Part shown: positions 1 through 33,211 of the stretch, in pieces
Layout of the letters: each line of letters begins with the position of its first letter
How positions within the stretch are numbered: the stretch's first letter is position 1
Assembly (NCBI GenBank): GCA_039630245.1
Contig: JBCNVK010000004.1
Coordinates: 5,403 to 69,402, forward strand
DNA: 64,000 nucleotides
Direction: 5' to 3'
Source of the DNA: Bacteroidia bacterium
Lineage (GTDB): Bacteria > Bacteroidota > Bacteroidia > SpSt-205
Notes under the pieces: generated by a model
Seen by the model: the letters and a program-made list of their open reading frames with translations, nothing else
Database searches by the model: none
What the model was told of the DNA's origin: nothing
Translations under genes and position numbers: made by a program

Positions 1-87
1 GGGCCGCCGCTTGGGCTTTTTGTATCCGCTGCAGCTCAGCTACCGCCGAAGGTGTAAGGTGGAGGCGCATAGCTACCCTTAACGCTT

Positions 88-3000
88 TTAGGGTCGTACC
101 AGAATAAAAGCCCCCCAGAAATAAGGGGCCGAGCGCTGCTCCCGCATGGCTTTCTGCGTATTCCAGAAGGCTTCCTCTAACGGTAATTTTTTGCGCAGCC
201 ATTCCTGGTAGAAGCGAATCATGAAGTCTCGCGTGGCCTCATCATCCACCTTCCATAGGCTTAGGAGGAGGTTCCGTGCCCCGGCTATGAGGAAGGCACG
301 CTGAAGCCCATAAACGCCTTCGCCATTTTGCACCTCACCGAGGCCAGTTTCACACGCTGAGAGGGCCACAAGTTCGGTATTTTGCAAGCGCAGGGAGATA
401 AGTTCGTAGGCGTTGGCAATTCCATCTCGGCTGACGTCGCTGCTTCCGTGCAGCATAGAGCGCCCCGACTCGGCCAGAAGTAGCGCCGAACGAAAGAGAG
501 GATTAGCCAAAGCACTACTCACCTGAATACCAACCAGCGCGCCGAGACGCTCATCATAAGGCAGGAAAAGCCCATGCGTGGCTATATGTAAAATGTAGGG
601 CGAGGTATATTGGTAGAGAAGCGGTTCGCTCGCCTGCCTTTCCAGATGAATCAGAGGGAGAATCCCTTCGCTGCGCAAAATGTCCTGAATCGCTTTGGCT
701 TCTTCGGCCGTACCAGGGAGGGGCGGTACGTAAACGCTGTCCTCAGGCATATCAGGCGCGAAAGTAGGATTAGCCAGGATGAGGGCCTTTCGCCCCTCCC
801 AGTTCCGAATAGGTGGGGCTGGCCGGAGAAGATTCGCCAGGCGCGTGTGATAGATGACCTGATATTTGTCGGCAAGGTAACCGCCTGTGGGCAGAGGCAA
901 AGTGGAGAGGTTAACCTGATTATAGACCCCATCGGCTGATACAAAGAGCTTTTGCACAGTAGGCGGAAGTACCTCAGCTACAGGAGCCCAAAAAGCCCTA
1001 TAGGAGATAGTGTCTTTTTCAAAGTTCAGTATGGATTGACTGTAGCGGAAAAAGGCGTAGGTTTCCATCCATCGGCCGCGTGGAAAACAGACTACCAGCG
1101 GTTCTTTAGCTTGGCGCGTAGTGATGATGGCATAATACAAAATGGAATCTGGGGCTAGAGGGCTGCGGAGACGCAACCAGTCCACGGCCGCCGCATCCGC
1201 TGGAAGGGCTTGACGAAGCTGCCTCCATTTAGCCTGAAAAAGGCGAATATCCCCGGCATACTGGGCGAGTTGCCTTTCCAGTTCATTCAGGCGGGCTTCC
1301 TCCTCAGCCAGATTAATGCCCATCGTACGCAGTTCCTCTGGGGAATAGGCGTAGAGGCGGGCCACGAATTCCTTTTGCTCCTGCCAGGCGTAGAAAGTAT
1401 GCTGCACCAAGGTATCGGGATGCGAAGCAAAGCGAGCCCGCAATTGAGCCGTCTCATTCAGAATAAAGGCCTTTGTAGCTAGATAGGTTTCATAGGCTTG
1501 TAGGCGGTCCGACTTGGTGCCTTGACTGAAGGCATAGGCGTAGTAGTGCTCCAGTACGCGGCGCACGCGCGCCCAGTAGCGGGCCTTTTCGCTTTCGCTG
1601 AAACCATTGAAGAGCTTATCCACCTGTTTGAGAATGAGAGAAGCGGCCTTTTTGTAGTTAGACTTAGCATCGGCGTAGCTTTGCGCCAGCCAGTGGAGAT
1701 CGGCCAGCTCAGCTAGGTAGAAGGGGTACTCGGGGTGCTGCGTGCCGTGAGCTTTGAGCCAAAGGTCAAGCCATTTACGGTATTCTCGGAGTGCGGTGAG
1801 GTGGTAGCCTTGGGCCCGATACAGGCGGGCTTGATAGAGGAAGGCCCGCAGACGATCTGGATGATACGCTGGCGCATCTACCTCTAAAATAGCGCGGGCG
1901 GCTGCGAGGCGCTCCTCAGCGCGGGCAAGGCTATCCAAGGCTAGCCAAGCCCCGCTCAGGTCCAGCGAAAGCGCCGCATATTCTAAAGGCGCGGAGTTCT
2001 GAGCTAGCTCGGCTATGGACGCACTGCGATGCAGGTGGTGCGTAGCGCTGTCCCGTTTGCCTTGAAGGAGGGCATTTTCGGCTAAAAGATAATGCGTGCG
2101 GGCAAGCGGAAGCGCTGGCTTGCTGCCGTAGAAGCTCTGTTGGGCTTGAAGGGCCTCTTGCAGGTAAGCCGCTTGGCGGTCATACCGGCCTAACGCCGCG
2201 GCGAGGCGTCCCGCCGCTAAAACCGCTTCCACATACCCCAGCGACGTCGGCCCCAAAAGCCGCTTATTGAGGTCCAAAGCCTTGCGAATAGTTTCTTCGG
2301 CCTTCGGGTAATCGCCCATTTCCAAATAGAATTCGCTAAGAGCGCTGTAGTAAGCTGCCGCTTCGGCATCCTCTCGAGCCCCTTGATAGAGCTTAGCCAA
2401 GCGGTTGTAGGTTTCTTTAGCCTGGGTGTAGCGACCAGTTTTCTGGTAGAGTATAGCTAAGCGCAGGAGGCTTAGACCTTCTTCGGTAGTTTCTTTGCTC
2501 TCTCGGCGCTGGAGGCTGCGCAGGCGCGTGGCACGCAGATAGTGACGCTCCGCTTCGCGAAATTGCCCCTTAAGCCGCGCCAAGTCCCCTAAAGCCTCCT
2601 CCAAGGTTATCTTTTCGCTTAGGTACGCATCGGGCAGGTGGCGGATAGGCTTATCTATAGCAAGGAGAAGTGTCTCCGCTGGCGCTGGCAAAAGTAGCGC
2701 TAAAGATACATTAGCCAGGGCTAGCGCCGTACGTAGGTAGGCAGGATTGGTCTGGGGTTTAGGGAGAAGCCGCTCATAGGCCGTCTTTTGGTAAATCAGG
2801 AGCGTTTCGGCCTGGGAGTAGTAGCCGCGGCGCAAGGTGTGCTGCGCCAAAACCTCCCACAGGCTAAAGGTACGCGGGCCTACAGGATCGCCCAGCGCAC
2901 TGAGGAGGCGCCGTACCTGAGCATAGGCCGAATCGGCCTGCTGCGGCCGAAAGAAGGCCAGATATGTCGTGCCCAATTCCGCCAGGCTGAGCGCCTGATC

Positions 3001-4122
3001 CAACGCAGGGGTAGGTAGGAATTCTTCGGCCCGAAGCACGCTCTGGGTAGCGTAGCCTAGAGCGATAGATTGTCGCCCCCTAAGGCGCCCCACCGCCGCT
3101 ACCTGACGCTGAAGCCGAAGAAGTAGAAGGCCCTGAGCCCCTTGAAGGCTAAGGCTTAGAAGATTTTCATATAGATTCTCACGGCGCGTAAGGCGGGTTA
3201 TATAACCCACATGTTCCAGACCTTCAATAGCTGGATAGGTAAGAGGAACCTTCCGGGCTTTATAGGCTCCTATAATAGAATTCATTTTGCGCAGGCGGCG
3301 CTCATAGCTGCGGCGGGAAGCGTGTTGAAACTCATCCAGTAGGAGGCGCGTCCGAGCCCGCAGGGCTAAATCCCGCCCCTTTTGAAAGGTGCGCCGGGCA
3401 AATCGACGGCTCTGGCTAAGGTATTTGCGGGCTTTTTGCCGATCACCCTGAAAGAAGGCCGCTTCCGCCAGTAGGTAGGCGTACTCGGATTGATAGCGGC
3501 GAAGGTGATTACTGGGAGGAAAGGGCGGAAAGGCGGCGGGAAGAGAATCCCAATATCCTCTTTCCCAAGCAAGCCAATACCCGAGGTAGGCAGCGCGAGC
3601 CTTTAGGTAGCCACCGTACGGGGGGGGGAAGCTCTCTAAGCCAGAGGAAGTGTTCAAATAAGTTTGCGCAGCGGACAGCTGGCCTAAGTGAAGGGCGTTT
3701 TCGGCCTGTTCTAAATTCAGCAGGGCTTTTTCCCAGGGCTGTTGGGTGTAGGGCTGAGCTTGGCGCAGCATTTCTTCGGATTCTTTGAGGCGGCCCAGCC
3801 CGCGCAGAATGCGGGCCCGCGTCCAGAAGTAGCGGAGCCGTAGCTCAGGTGTGGCTTCGCCGCGCGGGATGAAGCTAAACTGCTGAAGGAGCGATTCGGC
3901 CAGCGCATACTGATGGGCCTCAGCTAAAGCCAGTGCTTGGGCCACCCCGACCGCCCCATGAGCTTCTTCGGGCCTTAGGCCCTTCTTGAGCAGGCTTTTA
4001 TAAGCTGAAGCCGATTTTTTGGCAAAGGAACCTAGCTTGCCTTGAAAGTAGAGCGGTTCGTTGAGAAATCCTTGGGCGAAAAGGAGACTTAAGCCAAAGG
4101 CTAATCCAAATTTAGCCTTCAC
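88..4122 (-). CDS. Secreted TPR-repeat protein with a C-terminal CHAT (caspase-like) peptidase domain, 1344 aa. GTG start overlaps the rplS 3' end by 11 nt.
   Basis: N-terminal signal peptide [18 protein letters not shown]. Many TPR-like helical repeats follow. The C-terminus has the CHAT His/Cys dyad context (ILHIATHG ... [10 protein letters not shown]). Stop TAA at 88-90. Confidence 0.75.
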
Positions 4123-4471
4123 GACGCTTGAGCTTGAGGGCTTTACCTACCCGACCCCGCATGTAAAAGAGACGGGCTCGACGGGTGCGATTGGGCCGTA
4201 ATACTTCCACCTTCAGAAGAAAAGGAGAATGCAGCGGCACAATCCGTTCTACCCCTATCCCGCCGGATACCTTACGCACGGTTACGGTTTCGCTAATCCC
4301 TCTCCCTCGGCGCTGAATGACCATGCCCTCAAAAACCTGAATGCGTTCCTTGCCGCCTTCCACAATCCGAAGGTGTAGCCGAACCGTATCCCCAGCTCGG
4401 AAGGAGGGTAAATCAGCCTTATGGTAAGGCGCATTTATAAGGTACTCCACCTCCCGCAAAAGATGGCTCAT
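4112..4471 (-). CDS. rplS: 50S ribosomal protein L19
   Basis: The 119-aa translation shows the typical L19 core ([51 protein letters not shown]). Confidence 0.92.
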
Positions 4472-4475
4472 GCCG

Positions 4476-4483
4476 CAAAGGTA
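4476..4483 (-). promoter_or_regulatory. Bacteroidota sigma-A -7 element TACCTTTG, 4 nt upstream of the rplS ATG. It is embedded in a perfect 8-bp/4-nt-loop inverted repeat (4475-4494).
   Basis: Minus-strand read ...TACCTTTGcggcATG. The same motif-plus-spacer architecture recurs at many starts in this window. Confidence 0.6.
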
Positions 4484-4560
4484 TAAACCTTTGCCCTTCC
4501 CTCTGTCTGAAACCGACGGTTGGAATTATTTGACTGAAAGTAGCTATATTTGCCCGTGAT

Positions 4561-5403
4561 ATGAGCCAGACCACTACTTCTACCGTGACTTCTGGGGCAC
4601 CTCAGGTACGCTCAGCGGGTGCCGCCCTTAGAGAATTTTTCGCTACCATTGTAATAATTGTATGTATCACCATTGGCATTCTCATCTATGTTTTCATCTT
4701 GGGTAACCCCAACAATTTTGAGGGGGGCGATCCGCGGAATAACCCTCTACAGGGGAATTACTTAGGTATCGCTTACAAGGGCGGGGTGCTAGTTCCGATT
4801 GCTATAGGGCTTTTGCTTATTGCGATTACTATGTCTATAGAGCGAGCCATCACCCTAGCACGCGCAACAGGCAAGATGAGCATGGAAGCCTTTGTCCAGC
4901 AAATAGAATATCTTCTGGAGTATGACCGAATTGACGATGCGCTGGCCCTGTGCGACAAGCAGCGCGGCACCGTAGGCAACGTAGTGCGCGAAACCTTAGT
5001 GCGCCTCAAGCAGGTAAAAGACGACCCTAAAATGGATCGCGAGCAGAAAGTCGTAAGCATTCAGAAGGCCTTAGAGGAGTCGCTAGCGCTAGAGCTACCT
5101 ATGCTGGAAAAGCACATGACTATCATCGCAACGATTGTATCTATTGCCACTCTTATTGGTCTGATTGGTACGGTATTGGGTATGATTCGGGCCTTTGCGG
5201 CGCTGGCTACCTCGGGCGCACCCGACGCCGTTGCCCTCGCCACAGGGATTTCAGAAGCCTTGGTAAATACCGCGCTGGGCATTACCACTTCCACCATAGC
5301 GACAGTAATGTACAACTACTTTACCAGCCGAATAGATGACATTACTTATCGAATCGACGAAGCCGGTTATATTATCGTGCAGACCTTCCAAGCCAAAAAT
5401 TAG
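4561..5403 (+). CDS. exbB: MotA/TolQ/ExbB proton-channel protein (ExbB) with a long Bacteroidota-type N-terminal extension
   Basis: TM helices are present, and the C-terminal part matches the TolQ/ExbB family (GLIGTVLGMIRAF, ALVNTALGI). It is followed by two exbD genes and tonB. Confidence 0.85.
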   Translation: MSQTTTSTVTSGAPQVRSAGAALREFFATIVIIVCITIGILIYVFILGNPNNFEGGDPRNNPLQGNYLGIAYKGGVLVPIAIGLLLIAITMSIERAITLARATGKMSMEAFVQQIEYLLEYDRIDDALALCDKQRGTVGNVVRETLVRLKQVKDDPKMDREQKVVSIQKALEESLALELPMLEKHMTIIATIVSIATLIGLIGTVLGMIRAFAALATSGAPDAVALATGISEALVNTALGITTSTIATVMYNYFTSRIDDITYRIDEAGYIIVQTFQAKN

Positions 5404-5409
5404 GGGGTT

Positions 5410-6021
5410 ATGAGTAAATTCAAGGCTAAGAAGCAGAATATTGCGATAGACATGACCCCCATGGTGGATTTAGCCTTCTTGCTTATTACTTTCTTCATGC
5501 TTACGGTCAAGTTTCGTGCGCCAGAGGCGGTAGAGGTGGATTTGCCTTCCTCCATAGCCGATACGCCTCTGCCAGCGCAGGATATCCTCATGATTTCGGT
5601 CTCGGGGGATGGTCGGATATTTTTTGGGGTAGATAGCAAGCATGTACGGCTTGGAATTCTAGAGAAGATTAAGGAGCGGTATGGGTATAGCTTCAGTGAG
5701 GAGGAAATGCACCTTTTCTCTATCCTACCGGAAATCGGTGTGCCTTTTGAGCAGCTTAAGGGCTATTTGGCTTTACGGGAAGACGAGCGAAAGGCTATAG
5801 ACAAGCGAGCCTCTATACCCGTAGATAGCACAAATAACCAGCTCAAGCAGTGGATTCTTTTTGCGCGCTATAGCAATCCCAAGCTGCGGATAGTTATCCG
5901 AGCAGATGAACGGGCGCCCTACCCCGTCATCGCCCGCGTGATAGAGACGCTCAAGGAACAGAAGATACACCGATTTAATTTGATTACTACCTTTGAAGCG
6001 CGACCACAAAAAGTCTCTTAG
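5410..6021 (+). CDS. exbD: Biopolymer transport protein ExbD/TolR
   Basis: The N-terminus is DMTPMVDLAFLLITFFM, the ExbD signature. Confidence 0.85.
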   Translation: MSKFKAKKQNIAIDMTPMVDLAFLLITFFMLTVKFRAPEAVEVDLPSSIADTPLPAQDILMISVSGDGRIFFGVDSKHVRLGILEKIKERYGYSFSEEEMHLFSILPEIGVPFEQLKGYLALREDERKAIDKRASIPVDSTNNQLKQWILFARYSNPKLRIVIRADERAPYPVIARVIETLKEQKIHRFNLITTFEARPQKVS

Positions 6022-6024
6022 GGT

Positions 6025-6591
6025 ATGGCAGCGGAGGTAGGAGGTGATAGCGGGGCACCCAAAAAGGGCAAGAAGAAAGGGAAAGCCCGCAAGCCGCGTA
6101 AGCGCCCACGCATTGATATGACGCCCATGGTGGACTTGGGCTTCTTGCTGCTTACCTTCTTCGTGCTTACCACCACTATGTCTACCCCTAATACGATGCC
6201 TGTGGTAGTACCGCCTAAGATTACCGAGAAAGATGAGGTAGAACCGCCAAAGATTGCCGAGGGCAAGGTTATCACTTTGCTCGTAGGTCGAGGAAAAGTA
6301 TACCACTATACGGGCGTAGAAAAACCGGAACTCCATCAGACGGATTTCTCCTCTCAAGGCGGCATACGGCGGGTGCTTCTACAACGGCGTCAAGAAGTAG
6401 CCGCGCGCTACGGCAACCCCGACGAAATGATTGTCATAATCAAGATGCTGGACGAGGCGCAGTACAAGGACTTTGTGGATATCTTGGATGAGATGAATAT
6501 CATTCAGCAGCGCAAATATGCCTTGGTGGATATTACCAAGGAAGAAGTAGGAATGGTAGAGGATTACAAAAAGCAGATGAAATCCTCTTAG
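6025..6591 (+). CDS. exbD: Biopolymer transport protein ExbD/TolR (second copy, basic N-terminal tail)
   Basis: IDMTPMVDLGFLLLTFFVL motif. It is tandem with the first exbD. Confidence 0.85.
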   Translation: MAAEVGGDSGAPKKGKKKGKARKPRKRPRIDMTPMVDLGFLLLTFFVLTTTMSTPNTMPVVVPPKITEKDEVEPPKIAEGKVITLLVGRGKVYHYTGVEKPELHQTDFSSQGGIRRVLLQRRQEVAARYGNPDEMIVIIKMLDEAQYKDFVDILDEMNIIQQRKYALVDITKEEVGMVEDYKKQMKSS

Positions 6592-6594
6592 CCC

Positions 6595-7407
6595 ATGAAG
6601 GCGACGGTGTTCAATTGGGATGATCGGCTATTTGCGCATCGCAATAAGGAATACGGGGCTTACTTTCTGCGCAAAAACTATGTGCGCCATACCTTGGGGG
6701 CTTTGCTTATTGCAATCAGTGGCGTCGGTATAGGCATAGCCGTGCCCTTCGTAAAGGCCTATATAGAGGCAAAGCTCCATGGGCTCAAGCGGGAGAAGCG
6801 GCGCACGGTTATCACCGAGCTTATGGAGCCTCCTCCAATAGATAAGAAGAATGAGCCCCCACCACCTCCGATAGAGCAGCCTCCTCCTCCCCCCCAAAGG
6901 GCTCAAATTAAATTTGTACCCCCACAGGTAGTCAAAGAAGAAGAGGCGCGCAAAGAAGAAACTATCGCCAATATAGACACCCTAATGAAAGTAGACCCTG
7001 GCACCAAAGATGTACAAGGCGACCCCAACGCGATACCCGAAATAGGGGAAGTGGGTGGCACGGGCAATCAGCCCGTGGAAGTCGTAGAGAAAGAAGAGGA
7101 TCCAGACCCCACGGCTTTTGTAGCGGTTGAAAAGGAACCGCAGCCAGTAAATATGGACGATATTCGGCGTCGCATAGGCTATCCGCCCCTAGCCAAGGAA
7201 GCTGGTATACAGGGAAAGGTAATCGTGCGCGTTCTCGTAGGCAAAACCGGAAAGTATGAAAAGCACATGGTGTTACGCTCACCGCACAAAATACTCACAG
7301 AAGCGGTAGAGAAGGAGCTACCCAATCTGGAATTCACCCCGGGCATTCAAGCTGGCAAACCCATCAAAGTATGGGTTACCATTCCGTTTGACTTCCAGCT
7401 TAGATGA
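6595..7407 (+). CDS. tonB: Energy transducer TonB
   Basis: N-terminal TM anchor, a Pro-rich spacer (EPPPPPIEQPPPPP), and a C-terminal TonB domain (YPPLAKEAGIQGKVIVRVLV...GKPIKVWVTIPFDFQL). Confidence 0.88.
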   Translation: MKATVFNWDDRLFAHRNKEYGAYFLRKNYVRHTLGALLIAISGVGIGIAVPFVKAYIEAKLHGLKREKRRTVITELMEPPPIDKKNEPPPPPIEQPPPPPQRAQIKFVPPQVVKEEEARKEETIANIDTLMKVDPGTKDVQGDPNAIPEIGEVGGTGNQPVEVVEKEEDPDPTAFVAVEKEPQPVNMDDIRRRIGYPPLAKEAGIQGKVIVRVLVGKTGKYEKHMVLRSPHKILTEAVEKELPNLEFTPGIQAGKPIKVWVTIPFDFQLR

Positions 7408-31992: not shown

Positions 31993-33158
31993 TGCGCTTG
32001 GCCGTAATAGGTCCGCCGCGGGATGTGCATCTACGCCGGTGGGGAGAGGCGCTTCGGGCGGCGGGAGCCGAGGTGCTTTTCGTAGGGGTGGAGAAAGCCC
32101 CACCCGACCTAATTCCCTACCACTGTATAGGCCCTCCCGTAGAAAAGCCCAGCTTCTGGACTTTTTGGCAGCGCCGTCGGGCGCTCAGGGCTTTCCTAGT
32201 AGCGCAGCGCGTGGATTTGGCCCATCCCATTCATCTTACACCTTCAGGGGTGTGGGTGTGGCTTAGTGGCTTCCGCCCTTACCTGCCTTATGTGATGGGA
32301 GCGGACGTACTGGAGTATGGGCCTAGGCGACCGGCCTTAGGACGCAGCTGGAGCCTCCAGAGTGTGTCGCCCTCCCCTCTCCTTTACCTGCGCACCTTCC
32401 TGCGCCGGAAACTTATGCCACCGCTTTTACGGGCTACGCTAAGGCAGAGCCTAGCGGTAGCAGCCGATAACTACGAGCTTAGTTTTACATGCAAATTTTT
32501 TGTAAAAAGAAAAAAAATTATTGAACTCCCAGCTGGTATACGGGTGGTGGAGGGGGCGGCGCCTGAGCGGCGCGGCATTCTAGTAGGGCGCGGGACTACT
32601 TCCCTATACCAAGCGGACATTATTCTGGAGGGGGTGCGTCGCTACCTAGCGGAGGGGGGACGGCAGCCTATCTACTGGCTCAGGGGCCTCTACCCGCCCC
32701 ATCCTACTCTCCTGCGCCAAATCCGTCAAATAAGCCAGAAGTACGAAAATAGGTTTTATTTTTTTGAAAACATACTATCGCCGGCACGCCTTTGGCAGCT
32801 TTGGCAAGAGGTGGCAGCCTTTATCTCAGCCCCTGTGTATGACGGCTACAGCTACGCCGTAGCGGAAGGGCGCCTAGCTGGAAGCCTGCCAATTGTGAAC
32901 GCTATACCCGCCCATCTGGAAATTCTGACCCACGGCTATAACGCTTACATTGTAGAGCCTTTTACGGCGGTGCGTTTGGCTCAAGCCCTCCATGAAGTGG
33001 AGGAATGGCTAGCCGGTCCGCCCTTTTGGGCGGGTCCTAACGCCGAATGGGTGCGACGCTTCTCCGACTTAGCCCAGTCGGCCCGCTGGTTTCTCAGCTT
33101 TGTCCAAGAGAATTTACTACCTTTGCACAGGAACGGCGGGTATAGCTCAGGTGGTTAG
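31992..33158 (+). CDS. Glycosyltransferase (GT4-like). The 3' end overlaps tRNA-His by 24 nt.
   Basis: GT-B fold features with an EX7E-like region (AEGRLAGSLPIVNAIPAHLEILTHGYNAYIVEP). Confidence 0.55.
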   Translation: MRLAVIGPPRDVHLRRWGEALRAAGAEVLFVGVEKAPPDLIPYHCIGPPVEKPSFWTFWQRRRALRAFLVAQRVDLAHPIHLTPSGVWVWLSGFRPYLPYVMGADVLEYGPRRPALGRSWSLQSVSPSPLLYLRTFLRRKLMPPLLRATLRQSLAVAADNYELSFTCKFFVKRKKIIELPAGIRVVEGAAPERRGILVGRGTTSLYQADIILEGVRRYLAEGGRQPIYWLRGLYPPHPTLLRQIRQISQKYENRFYFFENILSPARLWQLWQEVAAFISAPVYDGYSYAVAEGRLAGSLPIVNAIPAHLEILTHGYNAYIVEPFTAVRLAQALHEVEEWLAGPPFWAGPNAEWVRRFSDLAQSARWFLSFVQENLLPLHRNGGYSSGG

Positions 33159-33211
33159 AGCGTCTGACTGTGGCTCAGAAGGTCGTCGGTTCGAATCCGA
33201 CTGCCCGCCCA
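33135..33211 (+). tRNA. trnH: tRNA-His (anticodon GTG) with the encoded G-1
   Basis: Manual fold of the 7-bp acceptor GCGGGTA/TGCCCGC. D arm GCTC-AGGTGGTTA-GAGC. Anticodon stem TCTGA/TCAGA with loop CTGTGGC. T arm GTCGG-TTCGAAT-CCGAC. Discriminator C73 and an extra 5' G-1, diagnostic of tRNA-His. Confidence 0.93.

Follow-up and report, generated by a model that had tools for sequence, protein, structure and literature searches.

A TPR-CHAT protein with a predicted export signal encoded directly behind rplS in a clade of uncultured Bacteroidia

Why should a gene for a large caspase-like protein lie directly behind the gene for ribosomal protein L19, and is it switched on and off by a homopolymer inside its own coding sequence? 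Both questions are raised by a stretch of 64,000 nucleotides from a Bacteroidia bacterium (assembly GCA_039630245.1, contig JBCNVK010000004.1, positions 5,403 to 69,402), referred to below as the window, in which rplS is followed on the minus strand by an open reading frame (ORF) for a TPR-CHAT protein of 1344 amino acids carrying a G9 run. The explanation that best accounts for the observations jointly, and that we regard as probable, is that the gene encodes an exported TPR-CHAT protein, probably a latent cysteine protease, that its expression is driven by the rplS promoter, and that the G9 run has no role. The protein is typical of the exported TPR-CHAT proteins that make up a very large family in the Bacteroidota; what is out of the ordinary is where its gene lies, in a conserved position among ribosomal-protein genes as the cistron that follows rplS.

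Position of the TPR-CHAT gene behind rplS

The TPR-CHAT gene occupies positions 88–4122 (minus strand), with a GTG start codon at 4122–4120, and an identical protein sequence has the NCBI accession MEN2992729.1 ("MAG: CHAT domain-containing protein [Bacteroidia bacterium]", MAG standing for metagenome-assembled genome). Upstream of it lies rplS (4112–4471, minus strand), the 119-residue product of which matches Pfam PF01245 (Ribosomal_L19, E=2.3e-41). The two genes overlap by the 11 nt GTGAAGGCTAA (4112–4122, minus strand), which contain both the GTG start of the CHAT gene and the TAA stop of rplS. A first-pass annotation, made from the letters of the window, had placed the start codon over the last 11 nt of rplS, and these coordinates proved exact. 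The same overlap is found in the sister locus L003, and we infer that it is a site of translational coupling.

As judged from comparison with the L003 allele, the ORF is a genuine gene under strong purifying selection along its whole length. The ratio of nonsynonymous to synonymous substitution rates (dN/dS) is 0.066 overall, 0.12 for codons 1–60, 0.084 for codons 1–180 and 0.038 for the CHAT domain; the value for rplS is 0.032. A frameshift fusion of L19 with the CHAT protein was also considered and was ruled out, as stop codons at or near the junction close the CHAT frame in most orthologues. Downstream, 17 nt (71–87) separate the CHAT stop codon from the 5′ end of a gene for an A-type Fe–S (iron–sulfur) carrier of 107 amino acids, which is cut by the edge of the window (1–70, minus strand; residues 1–23 by tblastn). 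The complete gene can be read in locus L001 (11223–11546; NCBIfam TIGR00049, E=1.1e-28), where it is followed by rpsF, rpsR and rplI.

A genome scan with L19 recovered seven related species-level MAGs (L003–L009; L19 identity 78–97%), which have in common with window/L001 a divergent exbB, rplS, the TPR-CHAT gene, the A-type Fe–S carrier gene, rpsF, rpsR and rplI. The CHAT proteins of these seven are full length and 47–55% identical to that of the window, with L003 at 94%; the contig of L005 ends within the CHAT gene. An exhaustive HMMER search, the second source of orthologues, added P0096, which is 40% identical over the matched stretches and 38% identical by tblastn. In its genome (L088/L089), L19 is 67.5% identical and the same six genes are contiguous, with different flanks (nadE upstream, pdxA and pepA downstream). 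Across the ten genomes or assemblies, in which CHAT identity ranges from 38 to 94%, the rplS–CHAT junction measures −11 to +12 nt: −11 nt with a GTG start in the window and L003, and +3 to +12 nt with an ATG start in the other orthologues. The linkage to rplS first noted in the window is thus conserved in all ten.

More distant sequences are placed otherwise. A word-indexed protein search returned, besides the 94% sister, only homologues of at most 37% identity, and nothing further came from a profile search with the alignment of orthologues. Homologues at 33–36% identity (P0097–P0099) and the more distant P0002, P0006 and P0008 lie away from rplS. Among 73 other L19 loci (L19 identity at most 62%), none has a CHAT, Fe–S or rpsF gene nearby, and 3 of the 73 (L010, L012 and L039, all Bacteroidota) carry a Pfam-confirmed trmD directly upstream of rplS. 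The classical order rpsP–rimM–trmD–rplS is retained in L039 (6163–8369), and trmD–rplS in L012 (4075–6356) and L010 (6263–7902). In the window clade, in contrast to this classical operon, rplS has its own leaderless-type promoter, a divergent exbB (nadE in L088) upstream and the CHAT gene downstream. Because distant Bacteroidota keep trmD–rplS and the other L19 loci lack the CHAT string, the rplS locus of the window clade is a derived, clade-specific rearrangement that has long been maintained. The window clade has lost the rpsP–rimM–trmD–rplS arrangement of other Bacteroidota, in agreement with the first-pass remark that the usual trmD–rplS partners do not apply here.

Promoters and transcription units

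In Bacteroidota, the −7 box of housekeeping sigma promoters, TAnnTTTG, spans −12 to −5, and transcription starts 4–5 nt past its G (PMC6847099, PMC9723704). Such a box, TACCTTTG, is found at 4476–4483 (minus strand), 4 nt upstream of the rplS start (TACCTTTG-cggc-ATG), and is the putative promoter of the rplS–CHAT(–Fe–S) unit. In each of the nine other loci (L001, L003–L009 and L088), the box likewise stands 4–5 nt ahead of the rplS ATG. With the box only 4 nt ahead of the ATG, the rplS mRNA would be leaderless. A −7 box also precedes rpsF in all loci, 4–9 nt before the ATG (L001 11552–11566 and its equivalents in L003–L009 and L088), which excludes space for a structured 5′ leader of the S6:S18-binding type. 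An rpsF leader of this kind is known in other bacteria.

Across the loci compared, no conserved TAnnTTTG was seen ahead of the CHAT gene, rpsR or rplI, nor, within the window clade, ahead of the Fe–S gene. A scan of the region between rplS and the CHAT ORF with the sigma-70 consensus gave no promoter; that consensus is unsuited to Bacteroidota, so TAnnTTTG was used instead. No terminator-like site was found at the rplS–CHAT junction. The locus therefore has the attributes, as read from sequence, of an operon led by rplS: no promoter or terminator was found to separate the genes, their spacing would permit coupling, and the arrangement is conserved among relatives. The transcription units would be rplS–CHAT–(Fe–S carrier) and rpsF–rpsR–rplI. 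The first-pass annotation had argued from the lack of an intervening promoter motif that the CHAT gene is co-expressed with rplS, and the tight junction and missing CHAT box, both conserved in the ten genomes or assemblies, favour that proposal.

The Fe–S gene of the window clade apparently needs read-through of the 4-kb CHAT gene, so the latter is probably transcribed constitutively. A terminator-like hairpin, GGCCCCTTATTTCTGGGGGGCT followed by TTTATTCTGG, falls within the final 15 codons of the CHAT gene (109–130, minus strand), where the invariant PYFWGAF motif is encoded. It may attenuate read-through into the Fe–S gene, or it may reflect codon constraints.

Under the preferred explanation, the TACCTTTG box would direct transcription from the first base of the rplS ATG, so that the mRNA would have no leader, and ribosomes that end rplS would reinitiate, or be coupled, at the overlapping GTG, or at the nearby ATG in relatives. 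In the window clade, the rplS–CHAT transcript would probably run on into the A-type Fe–S carrier gene, and rpsF–rpsR–rplI would start from its own −7 box. Expression of the CHAT protein would then be constitutive and tied to the rplS promoter, with a translation rate presumably below that of L19.

Alternatively, the CHAT gene could have its own promoter embedded in rplS, for example one dependent on a sigma factor of the extracytoplasmic function (ECF) type, and its adjacency to rplS would then be a historical accident. Internal promoters are common, the homologues at 33–36% identity stand alone elsewhere, and both the sigma-70 and TAnnTTTG scans detect promoters of the housekeeping type only. 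We nevertheless consider an embedded promoter unlikely, since in the ten genomes or assemblies the junction never exceeds 12 nt, despite CHAT identity falling to 38% and despite rearranged flanks. The last 150 nt of rplS, moreover, show ordinary third-position variation and no extra conserved block of the kind expected of non-coding sequence, and the window-clade Fe–S gene, which also lacks a conserved box, would need read-through.

Some observations do count against transcription from the rplS promoter as set out here. The conserved adjacency might be inherited gene order as opposed to selected linkage, and a promoter of another sigma factor may be present within rplS. In L088, the Fe–S gene has a −7 box of its own within a 68-nt spacer. 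In L008 (7553–7560) and L009 (12383–12390), the codons for an invariant Tyr-Phe-Trp (TAT/TAC TTT TGG) close to the end of the CHAT protein themselves form a TAnnTTTG, which lies about 50 nt upstream of the Fe–S carrier gene. The own box in L088 and the codon-made box in L008 and L009 render the Fe–S gene less certain as third cistron, and its promoter supply seems to vary among lineages.

A second match, TAAATTTG (4107–4114, minus strand), is formed from the rplS stop codon and CHAT codons 3–6, downstream of the GTG, and was judged to be due to chance. As an internal promoter, it would give a signal-less protein from codon 60, the next in-frame start; this was rejected, since the match is present only in the window and L003, is absent from L004–L009, and codons 1–60 are under purifying selection.

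Boxes abutting start codons are not confined to rplS. The window contains 52 matches to TAnnTTTG where 26.8±4.6 are expected, and 13 of these lie 3–6 nt (mostly 4) before the start of ORFs of at least 100 amino acids, against an expectation of 0.03. They are found at 4483(−), 13779(+), 19072(−), 19922(−), 22004(−), 22089(+), 28163(−), 35955(+), 40658(−), 40691(+), 45801(−), 45825(+) and 56066(+), ahead of ATG or GTG starts, and include three divergent back-to-back pairs (22004/22089, 40658/40691 and 45801/45825). The proximity of boxes to the starts of 13 long ORFs implies many leaderless mRNAs in the source organism. In Flavobacterium models, about 5% of mRNAs are leaderless, or 13% have leaders of at most 10 nt (PMC9723704, PMC6847099). 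Boxes so placed, with the leaderless mRNAs that they imply, are rare in model Bacteroidota and should be useful for operon annotation in MAGs of this sort. The sole Rfam match in the window, a tRNA at 33136–33209 (+), has TACCTTTG 10 nt upstream (33118–33125), consistent with the motif being a working promoter in the source genome.

On the other side of rplS, an exbB–exbD–exbD–tonB cluster (4561–7407, plus strand) runs divergently and is followed by a 196-residue ORF and a ferritin gene, with 4-nt overlaps. exbB has a TATATTTG box 8 nt ahead of its ATG; with boxes before both genes, the 89-nt rplS/exbB spacer (4472–4560) would hold two divergent promoters.

Predicted export, fold and active site of the product, and the G9 run

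By inspection, the protein begins with a basic n-region, an 11-residue hydrophobic core, Ala-Gln and then Gly, with only 4 residues ahead of the hydrophobic segment. A Sec signal peptide for signal peptidase I (Sec/SPI) is accordingly predicted at residues 1–16 (4075–4122, minus strand) from inspection and conservation. Glutamine at +1 of the cleavage site typifies signal-peptidase-I substrates in Bacteroidetes (the Q-rule; PMC5837995, PMC10653852), and both the tripartite structure and Gln +1 can be recognised here. Gln17 is invariant in the alignment of eight sequences (A1), P0096 of L088 likewise has Gln after the hydrophobic core, and the N-termini of nine orthologues all run basic, hydrophobic, small and then Gln. 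Among the best 150 homologues, 132 have a hydrophobic N-terminus, with [AGSC]Q directly after it in 120 of the 132. We infer that the protein is Sec-exported and cleaved before Gln17, and its location is probably the periplasm. A cargo of the type IX secretion system would carry a C-terminal beta-sandwich domain; the protein has none and ends at the last CHAT strand (residues 1339–1343).

Pfam recognises TPRs (TPR_12, TPR_MalT and related families) only at residues 494–706 (2005–2643), which form part of a much longer solenoid. Two AlphaFold (AF2) models were built, for residues 1–829 and 830–1344. The first is all-alpha (predicted local distance difference test, pLDDT, 89.1; predicted template modelling score, pTM, 0.85), its sole disordered stretch being residues 1–20, where pLDDT is low. 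From this model, Foldseek and Pfam, an all-alpha TPR-like solenoid of about 40 helices is assigned to residues ~22–828 (1639–4059, minus strand). Its Foldseek matches are Ctr9, Ski3, IFT-A, the helical region of separase, OGT and TPR subunits of APC/C. The second model (pLDDT 89.5, pTM 0.92) matches Csx29 best (E~1e-14), then DdvA (4e-10), and also separases, SAVED-CHAT, gingipain R, MALT1 and caspase-11, so that the caspase-like alpha/beta fold of CHAT and clan CD is found in both the model and its structural neighbours. Kinesin light chain and other TPR proteins were all that a sequence search of the Protein Data Bank (PDB) had matched, and the CHAT part needed the fold search.

The CHAT domain itself (residues 1041–1342; 97–1002, minus strand), assigned by Pfam, AF2 and Foldseek to the caspase-like proteins of clan CD, matches PF12770 with E=4.5e-59 (200.7 bits against a cut-off of 24) over profile positions 8–287 of 289. 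It is the most conserved region, at 62–69% identity compared with 47–54% for the whole protein. The HIATH of HIATHG (codons 1179–1184), picked out by conservation among orthologues and homologues, lies at 574–588 (minus strand), with His1179 at 586–588 and His1183 at 574–576; Cys1257 of SACETG (352–354, minus strand) is, by its conservation, the predicted catalytic nucleophile. All three residues are invariant in the eight orthologues of alignment A1. A set of 50 homologues shows no change at Cys1257 or His1179 and at least 90% conservation at His1183. By analogy with caspases, in which glycine likewise follows the catalytic histidine, His1183 is the presumed catalytic histidine. NCBIfam and PADLOC offered no informative family for the protein. 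Each test of sequence or structure places the product in the CHAT/clan CD family. The architecture read by the first-pass annotation, with signal peptide, TPR array and a C-terminal CHAT domain with the context of a His/Cys dyad, is thus upheld in each of its parts: the signal-like N-terminus is backed by conservation across orthologues, the Pfam TPRs sit within a modelled helical solenoid of ~800 residues, and the CHAT match and its dyad are as given above.

Sec export with cleavage before Gln17 would give a mature periplasmic protein of ~150 kDa, in which a TPR superhelix of ~800 residues is followed by a helical/pseudo-caspase region and then by a caspase fold of the active type with His1183 and Cys1257. 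By analogy with separase, craspase Csx29 and, as has been proposed, DdvA (PMC11506125), the most likely role of the protein is that of a latent cysteine protease gated by protein binding to the TPR region. In such a protease, the dyad would be aligned only once a protein ligand or substrate docks on the TPRs, and the targets would be envelope proteins.

On the protein side, too, there are points to be set against this picture. Protease activity of members of the exported subfamily is a prediction throughout, and the hydrophobic segment may be an uncleaved anchor, in which case most of the protein would still be periplasmic. In DdvA, moreover, the periplasmic CHAT domain has an "incomplete" active site, and its proteolysis has not been demonstrated (PMC11506125), a precedent that would suit a non-catalytic TPR scaffold with a pseudo-protease CHAT domain. 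That this is the case here seems very improbable, given that His1179, His1183, Cys1257 and the motifs around them are invariant and that the CHAT domain is both the most conserved part of the protein and the one with the lowest dN/dS.

The first-pass annotation had further proposed that a 9-nt poly-G run at 3620–3628 (plus strand), the longest homopolymer in the window, acts as a slipped-strand on/off switch of the protease gene. The run exists as described and is indeed the longest: on the coding strand it is a C9 within TTC CCC CCC CCG, which encodes Phe-Pro-Pro-Pro (residues 165–168), and a G/C run of 9 nt so early in the ORF (codon 165) is what would be looked for in a contingency switch. 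The number of runs of at least 9 nt expected in 64 kb is, however, 0.45–0.71 for G alone and, for G or C, ~1.0 (independent, identically distributed bases) to 1.7 (first-order Markov), so that one such run in the window is unremarkable. In the sister genome (L002/L003), which is 90.5% identical in nucleotides and 94% in amino acids over the gene, the site reads TTT CCC CCG CCT; the same FPPPY is encoded, and the longest C run is 5 (C5-G-C2). Pro-Pro-Pro is not conserved in the other six orthologues of alignment A1, which are more distant and have GESY, QTPLLPY, QEPY and similar sequences in its place.

Nor does the gene look like one that is frequently inactivated. All alleles recovered are in frame at 1344 amino acids, and the overall dN/dS speaks against frequent loss. 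A Logan contig from SRR28200751 also has C9, though it may stem from the same data as the MAG. Maintenance of the tract, as would be looked for in phase-variable genes, is not seen; C9 is confined to the window genome. Lack of the tract in orthologues had been named beforehand among the grounds for abandoning the switch, and the orthologues do lack it. As judged from these sequences, the run is a chance, synonymous by-product of codon choice for Phe-Pro-Pro-Pro without regulatory role, and a switch is extremely improbable. Phase variation would have been the more striking claim, and the evidence does not support it.

Family membership and comparison with known systems

The exhaustive HMMER search, made with residues 145–1344, gave 8857 cluster representatives at E<=1e-30; at the looser threshold of E<=1e-10 the number was 50152. 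The best 150 homologues are mostly 900–1450 amino acids long and ~30% identical across the C-terminal ~830 residues. Exported Bacteroidota TPR-CHAT proteins share with the window protein a signal peptide with Gln +1, a TPR array, a C-terminal CHAT domain and a length of ~900–1450 amino acids, and are 27–36% identical to it over residues ~510–1343. The description of the protein as a giant secreted TPR-CHAT protein was therefore correct as to architecture; it is not unusual, being standard for a huge Bacteroidota family. Few uncharacterised large proteins of Bacteroidota are as numerous as the exported TPR-CHAT proteins, for which this search alone gave thousands of cluster representatives, and no functional study of them was found in the literature searched.

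The sampled paralogues (P0097–P0099, P0002, P0006 and P0008) stand alone or in signalling contexts, unlike the window orthogroup, which is fixed within its ribosomal-protein gene string. In TARA marine contigs (L083, 6001–12939), genes for an MtxA-like protein and a CHASE2-guanylate cyclase come after that of P0006, a signalling-looking context quite unlike that of the window. P0008 (L087, 4472–11885) adjoins a second CHAT protein and a CATASP-domain protein and is preceded by two TPR-only genes, and thus belongs to a multi-CHAT cluster.

What the rplS-linked branch does with such a protein can be approached through its expression. That the branch appears to have depended on the rplS promoter while diverging substantially is a clue to constitutive, housekeeping-like expression, and constitutive transcription of the CHAT gene fits a housekeeping role in the envelope better than an induced defence. 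The pattern thus argues against a purely defence or stress role, at least in this branch. Going further, the periplasmic TPR-CHAT protease might be a constitutive, growth-rate-coupled envelope housekeeping factor expressed from the leaderless rplS mRNA, as opposed to a stress or defence effector, with the processing or quality control of exported proteins as an example of its role. We offer this as a tentative and rather doubtful idea. If true, a housekeeping role would have been proposed for the first time for an exported CHAT protease of prokaryotes, and the protein would be an example of a non-ribosomal envelope enzyme bound to ribosomal-protein expression; the sole solved periplasmic TPR-CHAT protein, DdvA, is a signalling protein.

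The best structural match, Csx29, is the TPR-CHAT protein of the type III-E craspase (PDB 8EEY, 7Y9X and 8D9F; residues 830–1344, E 1e-14 to 1e-10). Like the window protein, it combines TPRs with a CHAT fold and a His/Cys dyad. It is cytoplasmic, binds Cas7-11 and is activated by RNA, whereas the window protein has an export signal, no cas neighbours, 14–16% identity to Csx29 and a TPR region about four times longer. The context of craspase Csx29, a cytoplasmic protein encoded with cas7-11/gRAMP and a CRISPR array, is not that of the window, where the neighbours are rplS, the Fe–S carrier gene, rpsF, rpsR, rplI and exbB. The rank of the Csx29 chains, together with the SAVED-CHAT match, could still suggest a cytoplasmic defence or abortive-infection effector of the kind represented by Csx29, SAVED-CHAT or gasdermin-activating CHAT proteases. 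We think this most unlikely: the export signal with Gln +1 is conserved, cas, CD-NTase and gasdermin genes are missing from the neighbourhood, which consists of ribosomal and Fe–S housekeeping genes, and across the clade the locus keeps its synteny and resembles core genome. PADLOC gave no defence-system match for the CHAT protein beyond weak ones to its TPR region, in keeping with the first-pass remark that no sensor or defence partner is adjacent.

DdvA, the only solved extracytoplasmic TPR-CHAT protein, has the same scaffold–TPR–CHAT order and a His/Cys dyad at rest. DdvA, an anti-sigma factor that controls a defence island, also carries an N-terminal zinc anti-sigma domain and a transmembrane helix and has a cognate ECF sigma factor gene. 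At the N-terminus of the window protein there is just the 16-residue signal peptide, with neither anti-sigma domain nor transmembrane helix, and the genes called in the flanks of the loci fetched include none for a sigma factor.

Separase (clan CD, C50) resembles the window protein in its long helical, TPR-like N-terminus followed by a pseudo-protease and an active caspase-like domain, and both halves of the AF2 model match it in Foldseek. It differs in being eukaryotic, nuclear or cytoplasmic, and regulated by securin and phosphorylation, and identity is ~10%. By analogy with these systems, the working mode of the window protein would be most like that of a soluble DdvA periplasmic module or of a bacterial separase-like protease.

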